A stretch of 34,370 bases of DNA from a virus (Duplodnaviria; Heunggongvirae; Uroviricota; Caudoviricetes). The stretch is from the IMG/VR virus record IMGVR_UViG_2737471860_000003; one strand, given 5' to 3'. Position numbers: made by a program. Shown here piece by piece: positions 9,001-12,000 of this stretch (position 1 is its first letter; every line of letters begins with the position of its first letter).

Positions 9001-12000
9001 TACGTGTTAGCCTGGTGGACCGTGAATGTCAGAAGGTGATTTGTGAACCGCTGGGCCGTAATTACCGCGTCAGTATGCCGCTTATAGCCTTTTGCTCCGG
9101 AAAAAACATGAAGCATCTCGGAGGTGCAGCATGAGTATGGAGCTGATGGTTAAAGCGATGAAAATTCGAGTGGGTAATCCATTGCGAAAACTGGTTCTGA
9201 TCAAGCTGGCTGATAATGCCAGCGATCAGGGTGAGTGCTGGCCCAGCTACCAGCATATTGCTGACCAGTGCGAGATTAGCAAACGTTCTGTGATGAATCA
9301 TATTGCGGCCCTTTGTGATTCCGGGCTGGTAAAAAAAGTCACCCGGAAAGGTGAAAAAGGTAACTCAAGTAATATCTATCTCCTTCATCTTGATGGTGCA
9401 GGAGATTCACTAGGGGGTAGTGCAAATAATTCACTATCTGGTGCAGCAAATTCACCAGGTAGTGCAGGAGTTGCACCAGGGGGTAGTGCAGGAGATTCAC
9501 CCAGAACCAGTCACTCTTTTGAACCAGTCAAAGAACCAGTCAATGAACCAATAGCTGTTGGTGCATCTGCTGATGAGTCTGTGCGAGTTCGTTCAAACCG
9601 ACCGGAATACTCTCCGGAGTTTGAGCAGGCATGGCTGGCATACCCCAAACGTGCTGGTGGCAATTCAAAATCTGCAGCCTTCAAAGCCTGGAAAGCCCGT
9701 TTGAATGAGGGGGTAAAACCCGAAACCATGCTGGAAGGTGTGAAACGCTACGCGGGCTGGGTATCTGCGATGGGTAACAGCGGAACACAATTTGTGAAAC
9801 AGGCTGTCACGTTCTTTGGTCCGGATCGTCATTTCGAAGAATCCTGGGAAGTTCCTGCGGTATCTGCAGCCAGACGCGAGGACCCGTACTTCAAAGCCAG
9901 TTACGACAACGTGGACTACAGCCAGATCCCGGCAGGATTCAGGGGGTGATCATGAGTCTTTTGAATGAAGTTCAGAAATTCATTGAAGCCCATCCGTGGT
10001 GTACTTCCGGAGACATTGCGGATGCTTTTGCAGGTTACTCACGGCAGCGCGTTCTGCAGTCAGCAAGCAAGTTACGTCAGAGTGGGCGTGTGGCTCACCG
10101 TTGTGAAGGAGATACACGCAGACATTTCCCACGCCTGACTGAGAGAGCGCAGGAGCCGGAACCACAACCAGTTCGTGAAACCAGACCTGTGCGCAATTTC
10201 TATGTCGGCACTAACGATCCCCGGGTGATTTTGTGCCTGACCCGCCAGGCGGAAGAACTGGAGTCTAGGGGCTTATACCGTCGTGCTGCAACGGTGTGGA
10301 TGGCGGCATTCCGTGAAAGCCACTCCCAGCCAGAACGAAACAATTTTCTGGCGCGTCGTGAGCGGTGCTTACGGAAAAGCAGCAAGCGCGCTGCATCAGG
10401 TGAAGAGTGGTATCTGTCAGGGAATTACGTGGGGGCTTAATGAGTAATAAATATTGCCAGGCGCTGGTGGAGCTGCGGAACAAACCAGCCCATGAACTGA
10501 AGGAAGTGGGCGATCAGTGGCGCACGCCGGATAACATTTTCTGGGGAATTAACACCCTGTTTGGCCCGTTTGTTCTGGATCTGTTCACTGACGGTGATAA
10601 CGCCAAATGTGCCGCGTATTACACGGCGGAAGACAACGCGCTGGCGCATGACTGGTCAGAACGTCTTGCGGAGCTTAAAGGTGCTGCCTTTGGTAATCCC
10701 CCATACAGCCGCGCCAGTCAGCATGAGGGGCAATACATCACCGGCATGCGTTACATCATGAAGCATGCCAGTGCCATGCGTGATAAAGGCGGGCGCTATG
10801 TTTTCCTGATCAAAGCTTCCACCAGCGAAGTGTGGTGGCCGGAAGACGCAGACCATATTGCTTTTATTCGCGGGCGTATTGGTTTTGAACTTCCTGCCTG
10901 GTTTATCCCGAAGGATGAGAAGCAGGTGCCGACAGGCGCTTTCTTCGCTGGTGCTATTGCTGTTTTCGACAAGACCTGGAAGGGACCGGCAATCAGCTAC
11001 ATCGGGCGCGATGAACTTGAGGCATGTGGCGAGGCGTTTCTGGCGCAGGTTCGCCAGCAGGCGGAAAAACTGGTCAGGGAGATGGCGGCATGACGACGTT
11101 AACTCAATGCCAGCAGCAGGTGCTGGATATGCTGATTTCTTACCAGCAAGAACGTGGCTTCCCGCCAACCAATCAGGAGGTGGCAACCATGCTGGGATAC
11201 CGTTCAGTGAATGCAGCGGTGGAGCATCTTCGCGCACTGGAGAAAAAAGGCGTCATCACGATAAAGCGTGGCGTGGCCCGGGGGATAACGCTTCATACCG
11301 CGGTGAAGGACGACGACAGCGAGGCGGTCGGGATTATCCGCGCACTGCTTGCCGGTGAGGAAAACGCCAGGCTGCGTGCAGCCCACTGGTTACATGAGAG
11401 GGAGCTGAAAGTATGAAGCTGATTCTGCCTTTTCCGCCCAGCGTGAACACGTACTGGCGACACCCCAACAAAGGGGCGTTTGCTGGTAAGAGCCTGATAA
11501 GCGCGGCGGGGCGAAAATTCCAGAGCGCGGCGTGTGCAGCAATAGTTGAGCAGTTACGTCGTCTGCCAAAACCAACGTCGGCACCTGCTTCAGTGGAGAT
11601 CGTGTTGTTTCCTCCGGATAACCGGATCCGCGATCTGGACAACTATAACAAGGCGCTGTTTGACGCCCTGACCCACGCGGGTGTGTGGGAAGACGACAGT
11701 CAGGTGAAAAGAATGCTGGTGGAGTGGGGACCGGTTATCCCGGAAGGGAAGGTCGAGATCACTATCAGTAAGTACGAAAAAGCGAGTTGCAAATTAGCAA
11801 CTCGGTAACGGAATTGAGCAACACCCTAAATTTGGGTATTACCTCGTTAAAGATACTGTATTTATGAACAGTGTATCCTTGATAACTATTAAAAATCGCA
11901 GTAAGTTCATCCTGCATCAACGAAAAGGGAGTGCAGTCCCGCTCGTGGATAAAAATTTGTGGAGAAACCAATGAATCAGTTGCTTGTAATTGATGGCGTT

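Follow-up and report, generated by a model that had tools for sequence, protein, structure and literature searches.

LexL, a LexA-type DNA-binding domain protein without an S24 peptidase domain, is encoded between dam and rusA in a very widespread lineage of lambdoid phages of Escherichia coli

The viral DNA stretch IMGVR_UViG_2737471860_000003 (34,370 nucleotides; "the window" below denotes this whole stretch) is a lambdoid Escherichia coli prophage or phage that is, over 10400-13000, 98.8% identical to Escherichia phage PhiR49_1. Within its nin-type delayed-early region, the plus strand at 11090-11416 encodes a protein of 108 amino acids that we label LexL. The lexL gene is translationally coupled in the delayed-early operon between a gene for a phage Dam methyltransferase (10437-11093, plus strand; Pfam Dam, E = 1.9e-45; TIGR01712, 3.3e-76) and one for a RusA Holliday-junction resolvase (11413-11808, plus strand; Pfam RusA, 6.4e-15); the stop codon of dam overlaps the ATG of lexL and the stop codon of lexL overlaps the ATG of rusA, in both cases as ATGA. 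All homologues examined, including those only 40% identical, keep the overlap of lexL with rusA. A spacer of 162 bp separates rusA from the gene for a KilA-N domain protein of 271 amino acids (11971-12786, plus strand; Pfam KilA-N, 1.3e-15; PHROG 129), and it holds an SOS (LexA) box, TACTGTATTTATGAACAGTG, at 11854-11873, 438 bp from lexL. Downstream of kilA-N are the genes for an HNH-like DUF968/YdfU protein (12788-13783, plus strand; Pfam DUF968, 1.1e-80) and the antiterminator Q (13786-14172, plus strand; Pfam Phage_antitermQ, 5.2e-48). A cI-type repressor gene lies on the minus strand at 6072-6833, and all other genes listed here are on the plus strand. The cI product has HTH_3 and Peptidase_S24 domains in Pfam and is of the RecA-cleavable type.

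In Pfam, LexL matched LexA_DNA_bind (PF01726) alone, with residues 1-65 covering the full model (1-65 of 65; E = 2.6e-19). No Peptidase_S24 domain was found by Pfam and the protein stops at residue 108; thus, the Ser119/Lys156 dyad is absent. PHROG 362 ('transcriptional repressor') matched LexL end to end (residues 1-108 on 1-106 of 106; 1.1e-58), and the NCBIfam lexA equivalog TIGR00498 was covered over model positions 1-91 of 203 with a score of 70.3 bits, which does not reach the curated cutoff for the canonical LexA repressor (110.95). A phmmer search against the PDB aligned residues 2-70 with the N-terminal domain (NTD) of E. coli LexA (1lea; E = 6e-16), including the RS-x-NAA-x-EHL motif. 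In an AlphaFold2 model of LexL, with a mean predicted local distance difference test (pLDDT) score of 81, residues 1-68 fold as a winged helix-turn-helix and are joined by a linker of low confidence (69-74) to a helical hairpin. The top Foldseek matches of this model were the LexA NTD structures 1lea and 3jso, with a root-mean-square deviation of 1.1-1.3 Å over 66-68 residues and 51% identity; across the comparisons, identity between LexL and the LexA NTD was about 43-51%. The architecture of LexL is, therefore, a LexA winged-helix DNA-binding domain followed by a private C-terminal helical hairpin. An original prediction, made from the sequence of the window, had described a homologue of the LexA N-terminus without an S24 domain at these coordinates, an SOS box upstream of a KilA-N gene, and a RecA-cleavable cI kept by the same phage; the open reading frame, the PF01726 match and the 1lea alignment bear out the first of these, and the Pfam results given above for KilA-N and cI agree with it as well.

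The recognition helix, codons 39-52 (11204-11245, plus strand), reads S-V-N-A-A-V-E-H-L-R-A-L-E-K in LexL and S-P-N-A-A-E-E-H-L-K-A-L-A-R in LexA. The DNA-contact residues of LexA helix III are S39, N41, A42, E44 and E45 (PMC3091678). Alignment showed that LexL keeps four of these five (S39, N41, A42 and E45) and has valine at position 44; valine also takes the place of P40 of LexA. In relatives of LexL that are 105-118 amino acids long and 40-53% identical to it, S39, N41 and the R64-G65-I66 wing are invariant and are common to LexA itself, while A42 and E/D45 are mostly kept. The retained helix-III contacts are an indirect hint that LexL may bind CTGT-N8-ACAG as a dimer. The C-terminal hairpin, codons 75-103 (11312-11398, plus strand), was modeled as two helices, H75-87 and H93-103, with pLDDT values of about 86-88, and stands in for the S24 domain; its pattern is common to the same relatives, and the model makes it a possible dimerisation element. 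HMMER aligned A88-G89 of LexL ('LLAGE') with A84-G85 of LexA ('VAAGE'), and the idea of a cleavage-site decoy was considered and rejected, as the Ala-Gly pair is not kept in the relatives, where the aligned position holds AN, VG, ER, TR, DD, AC or AE. Given that this pair is unconserved and that S24 is missing, LexL has no sensor for RecA*. Two further arrangements of the domain were observed. At L160 (1403-2026) and L166 (1613-2101), a LexA-type DNA-binding domain is joined to a different C-terminal domain of about 90 amino acids with no hairpin, and the ATGA overlap with rusA is kept. In addition, many representative proteins of 140-350 amino acids (P0126, P0134, P0141, P0144, P0148, P0155, P0158, P0162 and P0163) align with LexL over two distinct segments each; they seem to have a tandem pair of LexA DNA-binding domains, and might act as single-chain 'dimers' without an S24 domain.

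The LexL family is not new: NCBI labels it 'LexA family transcriptional regulator' and it corresponds to PHROG 362. The kind of protein is likewise known, and the lineage is very widespread. Of 5426 complete E. coli genomes, 2233 (about 41%) carry full-length lexL, at 2855 places in all; 2223 genomes have full-length copies at ≥95% identity, and Stx2-converting phages are among the carriers of full-length copies. Cluster P0001, with 2527 members, shares 98% identity with LexL. A scan of contigs with the LexL protein alone yielded Shigella flexneri and distant matches to the N-terminal domain only. Frameshifted and shortened copies also occur in the databases (P0027, P0055, P0068 and many fragments). 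These data define lexL as a common accessory gene of lambdoid phages.

The SOS box upstream of kilA-N was scored with a position weight matrix (PWM) built from 20 E. coli SOS boxes, which themselves score 13-28 bits. It reached 22.0 bits, against a best score of 19.5 bits over 200 shuffles of the window, and had an approximate heterology index of 5.1 (training boxes, 0.4-9.6). The CTGT-N8-ACAG pattern occurs four times in the window, with 0.41-0.5 expected, and none of the other CTGT...ACAG spacings from 0 to 20, such as a differently dimerised protein might use, was enriched there. The copies of the spacer in E. coli are nearly identical and, thus, uninformative on conservation. In three diverged homologous spacers, whose KilA-N proteins are 83, 59 and 54% identical to that of the window, the CTG-N10-CAG core is invariant and its distance to the ATG unchanged while the flanks have diverged, a pattern which reads as a phylogenetic footprint of the box core. 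The near-consensus box had been predicted at exactly 11854-11873, and with this score and footprint it is most likely a genuine host-LexA operator. The best sigma-70 promoter candidate, obtained with a custom scan, is at 11879-11907 on the plus strand (TTGATA at 11879, a 17-bp spacer and TAAGTT at 11902; 8 of 12 matches). A minus-strand promoter or a small SOS-regulated gene in the spacer was also considered and rejected; no convincing promoter was found there and a minus-strand open reading frame of 68 amino acids (11765-11971) was unsupported. Upstream of the box, at the 3' end of rusA, there is a perfect 8-bp inverted repeat, CGAGTTGC-AAATTA-GCAACTCG (11783-11804), which a terminator scan flagged on the minus strand only, the plus strand having no T-run. 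In this position it resembles the palindromes of Gifsy prophages, which likewise come before LexA boxes (PMC3121763).

The window contains two SOS boxes at ≥22 bits. The second, TACTGTAAAAATAAACAGTG (15504-15523; 22.8 bits), falls on codons 3-9 of the gene for an N6_N4 DNA methyltransferase (15496-16557; Pfam N6_N4_Mtase, 7.6e-42) located between Q and the lysis genes; the methylase gene of mEp460 has an identical box at its start, and >120 IMG/VR contigs also contain it. Of the methylase-box loci in IMG/VR with at least 5.5 kb upstream, 23 of 27 carry lexL. This association was set aside as evidence, as shared lineage confounds it; it would fit an action of LexL on the SOS boxes of phages. 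The scan for SOS boxes in other phages covered the lexL-positive phages SfII and mEp460 (complete genomes) and a 14-kb stretch of SfIV, where one, four and one boxes, respectively, scored ≥21 bits. The SfII box is inside the cI gene; those of mEp460 are inside the repressor gene (one), upstream of a dinI-like gene (two) and at the methylase gene (one). Both repressor-internal boxes, TACTGTTTTTATATACAGTA in SfII (L172, 29167-29186; 27.3 bits) and TACTGTTTTTACATACAGTA in mEp460 (L173, 31970-31989; 26.1 bits), lie within the coding sequence of S24-type cI/repressor genes, about 200 nt from the gene start, and the cI gene of the window has no such box; an internal or antisense SOS-controlled promoter is a possibility for these sites. 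The pair upstream of the dinI-like gene of mEp460 (23255-23302) is in tandem, a classic layout that has been reported for Gifsy and PhiKO2 as well. Lastly, a CTGT-N8-ACAG match in the 5' part of the Ash/Rha gene of the window, CTGTAAGTAACCACAG (7853-7868), had a score of 7.5 bits and a heterology index of about 15, and is therefore probably not a LexA site.

The closest tested precedent for LexL is gp6 of GIL01, a tectivirus of Bacillus thuringiensis. GIL01 gp6 is a truncated LexA homologue that binds the palindrome GaCACAnnTGTGaC, whose centre is at -43.5, and switches on the late promoter P3, which is repressed by host LexA together with gp7 (PMC6182141). Judged by domain make-up, gp6 and LexL are alike in being phage-encoded early-gene products with a LexA winged helix and no S24 domain, and in both cases host-LexA boxes are present on the same phage genome. 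They differ in that gp6 is essentially a bare DNA-binding domain, whereas LexL adds the conserved helical hairpin of about 35 amino acids; gp6 acts on a non-LexA palindrome as an activator of a late promoter, whereas LexL keeps most of the LexA contact residues; and GIL01 is a tectivirus in a host of another phylum, whereas LexL belongs to a lambdoid phage. With E. coli LexA, LexL has in common the N-terminal fold, S39, N41, A42, E45 and the R64-G65-I66 wing, but it is without S24, the Ser119/Lys156 dyad, the LexA dimer interface and the conserved Ala-Gly cleavage site; functionally, it would resemble the non-cleavable lexA3 (Ind-) repressor of E. coli. Other mobile-element products, i.e., GIL01 gp7, phage DinI-like proteins and plasmid PsiB, likewise alter the host SOS response; these act by protein-protein contacts on LexA or RecA, whereas LexL would occupy operators directly. 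For the kilA-N box, the comparison is with the Gifsy prophages, in which LexA-controlled promoters downstream of replication genes and preceded by palindromes are established (PMC3121763). The Gifsy dinI-antirepressor operon, 186 tum and N15 antC (PMC3121763) likewise have an SOS box before a cluster downstream of replication genes, with a palindrome preceding it, and as in those modules host LexA would make the kilA-N promoter damage-inducible independently of the phage repressor. The modules differ in that the repressors of Gifsy, 186 and N15 are non-cleavable and need a small antirepressor, whereas the phage in the window has an S24-type cI, and in that the downstream gene here encodes a KilA-N protein and is followed by ydfU and Q.

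From the fold and the residue conservation we tentatively propose, as a reading somewhat short of probable, that LexL is a RecA-insensitive LexA surrogate that would act on CTGT-type operators during lytic growth. The lexL gene would have derived long ago from the LexA N-terminal domain, the helical hairpin having replaced the S24 autoprotease/dimerisation domain; because of this replacement, RecA* would be unable to inactivate LexL. Since lexL is coupled within the rightward delayed-early operon, we infer that its production would await derepression of the prophage or infection. Given the LexA fold and the helix-III contacts that are kept, binding to CTGT-type (SOS-box-like) operators, possibly as a dimer, would be its most likely activity. 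LexL might then serve as a damage-insensitive stand-in once host LexA has been destroyed, re-imposing repression on host SOS promoters and on the SOS-box promoters of the phage (kilA-N and the methyltransferase gene). The box at 11854-11873 would itself give kilA-N, ydfU and Q an SOS-inducible promoter that is independent of cI.

Several points weigh against this proposal. The sole characterised truncated phage LexA homologue, GIL01 gp6, has another operator and is an activator. The recognition helix of LexL carries two substitutions, E44 to V and P40 to V. P40 is among the residues that are changed in LexA mutants of altered specificity, and the LexA NTD alone is a weak binder; dimerisation of LexL through its C-terminal hairpin is guesswork based on a modelled monomer. 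Of the 80 lexL loci surveyed in IMG/VR, about half lack a strong SOS box in the 6 kb to each side. At the kilA-N box, the candidate promoter is weak, its 8 of 12 matches being below the 9 of 12 threshold of the tool, and the box lies upstream of the -35 element, with 5 bp between them, and so not where a repressor classically sits; moreover, a tight repressor at 11854 would obstruct read-through from pR towards Q. Full-text literature searches found no functional study of, or binding data for, the enterobacterial LexL family.

The original prediction had gone further and suggested that the phage may carry LexL in order to tune or override SOS control of a KilA-N antirepressor or effector, in a dual, partly self-encoded induction circuit; the model considered here is that LexL and the kilA-N box form a dedicated and co-evolved circuit. 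The two elements do stand close together in the window, and the module made up of the box-bearing spacer and the 5' part of kilA-N, which we found at 205 places in 187 E. coli genomes, has lexL contiguous and directly upstream in 176 of these genomes (94%). This association was rejected as a signal of pairing once the base rate had been measured: the rusA allele of the window occurs at 2975 places and lexL is beside about 96% of them (2855/2975), so that a co-occurrence of 94% is no higher than expected and is not evidence of pairing. Conversely, the box module is present at only about 7% of lexL copies (205/2855). Of the 80 IMG/VR loci, which had been chosen for lexL, three or four carry the spacer and the others show no match to it or to the first ~225 bp of the kilA-N allele of the window; in the majority arrangement, e.g., in SfII and mEp460, only 19 bp separate rusA from the start of kilA-N and there is no box. 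Diverged but homologous box-bearing kilA-N modules without lexL also exist (L139 and L167). The box module thus represents a mosaic replacement that took in the rusA 3' end, the spacer and the KilA-N N-terminal domain, and given that the box lies in this separately inherited module, its pairing with lexL here is incidental. Furthermore, the KilA-N protein has no recognised antirepressor domain; Pfam finds the KilA-N domain only and matches no family to the C-terminal half, which leaves the antirepressor label as conjecture. We therefore consider a dedicated circuit improbable, and of the original prediction as a whole the non-cleavable LexA-domain protein, the credible box and the S24-type cI stand, whereas the circuit finds no support, lexL and the box being inherited independently.

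The main rival to the LexA-surrogate proposal is a private specificity as in gp6, in which LexL would have the LexA fold and an operator of its own distinct from SOS boxes, activating or repressing a phage promoter in the nin, Q or late region. GIL01 gp6 is 44% identical to its host LexA NTD and yet binds GaCACAnnTGTGaC and activates P3, and LexL, at a similar ~43-51% identity, differs from LexA in the recognition helix at positions 40 and 44; the kilA-N box is lacking in most lexL carriers, and in the window its location upstream of the -35 element resembles that of an activator site. Such drift in specificity would not, however, lead one to expect the conservation of S39, N41, A42 and E/D45 across the family, no other palindrome spacing is enriched in the window, and no conserved candidate operator other than SOS boxes was identified near lexL. 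On balance we think a private operator unlikely, though a serious contender. It could also be envisaged that LexL is no transcription factor and serves DNA metabolism together with Dam and RusA, for instance by directing or adjusting methylation or the resolution of junctions. The overlap of the lexL stop with the rusA ATG in all homologues examined and the presence of lexL beside ~96% of this rusA allele in E. coli would be in keeping with this idea, which has against it that rusA alleles 98% identical to that of the window occur without lexL (L141-L144 and L146), that winged-helix domains of the LexA family bind DNA sequence-specifically, that tight packing with overlapping codons is normal in nin regions, and that LexL has no domain pointing to protein-protein or branched-DNA binding; we judge it quite improbable. 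Finally, the scattered frameshifted or truncated copies (P0027, P0055, P0068 and many fragments) could suggest that LexL is a functionless, decaying remnant of a captured lexA. The full-length copies at ≥95% identity in 2223 genomes, the conserved family of 105-118 amino acids with its own C-terminal module and the conserved translational coupling make this explanation barely credible.

If the LexA-surrogate proposal is right and LexL binds SOS boxes, then four in ten E. coli genomes hold a phage gene capable of overriding the DNA-damage response after induction, and SOS mutagenesis, prophage competition in polylysogens and the timing of Shiga-toxin phages could be affected. In its broadest form, LexL, which prophages carry in ~41% of the complete E. 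coli genomes, would be a viral SOS off-switch of wide occurrence, occupying host and phage boxes after derepression, with shutdown of recA, umuDC, colicins and the LexA-controlled antirepressors of competing prophages during lytic growth; we regard this wider claim as doubtful. Should LexL recognise an operator of its own, it would represent a second independent phage capture of the LexA domain, after GIL01 gp6. Irrespective of LexL, an SOS-box promoter before kilA-N, ydfU and Q would provide a LexA-controlled route to the late antiterminator that bypasses cI, and the subset of prophages with such a kilA-N promoter includes ones in O104:H4 and phage SfIV.

Between kilA-N and Q, the plus strand contains weak and short terminator-like matches only, four within the DUF968 coding region and one at its 3' end (13767-13782), the T-run of which extends beyond the stop codon. 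Given that these matches are weak, a LexA-controlled promoter could read through kilA-N, ydfU and Q, and the DUF968/YdfU and Q genes (12788-14172), tightly packed after kilA-N, are probably co-transcribed with it. A leader stem-loop, GGGA-GTGCAG-TCCC (11927-11940, plus strand), is located ahead of the kilA-N ribosome-binding site. Its loop, (G/T)TGCAG, was present in 12 of 12 diverged kilA-N upstream regions (L134-L167), 25-45 nt before the start codon, and its arms covary (GGGA/TCCC, GGGG/CCCC, GGCGG/CCGCC, TCAT/ATGA and CGT/ACG); in the majority variant the stem-loop overlaps the rusA stop codon. An Rfam scan of 11300-12300, which includes the stem-loop, gave no match. A role as an RNA operator or as a site of processing is conceivable.

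Upstream of dam, the plus strand carries the Ash/Rha gene (387 amino acids; 7750-8913), an O-like replication protein gene and PerC/YfdN (9946-10440), in that order. The immunity region adjoins, on the minus strand, a gene for a ParA/MinD-like P-loop ATPase (4762-5847; AAA_31 and CbiA), which is an unusual neighbour of cI and might be a moron with a function in defence or partition. In the interval between Q and the methyltransferase gene there are an open reading frame of 214 amino acids (14221-14865), with a marginal WYL match only, and one of 75 amino acids (15118-15345), with a strong terminator-like hairpin between them at about 14990-15015; this pair (14221-15345) looks like a moron cluster and occupies the position that stx has in Stx phages.

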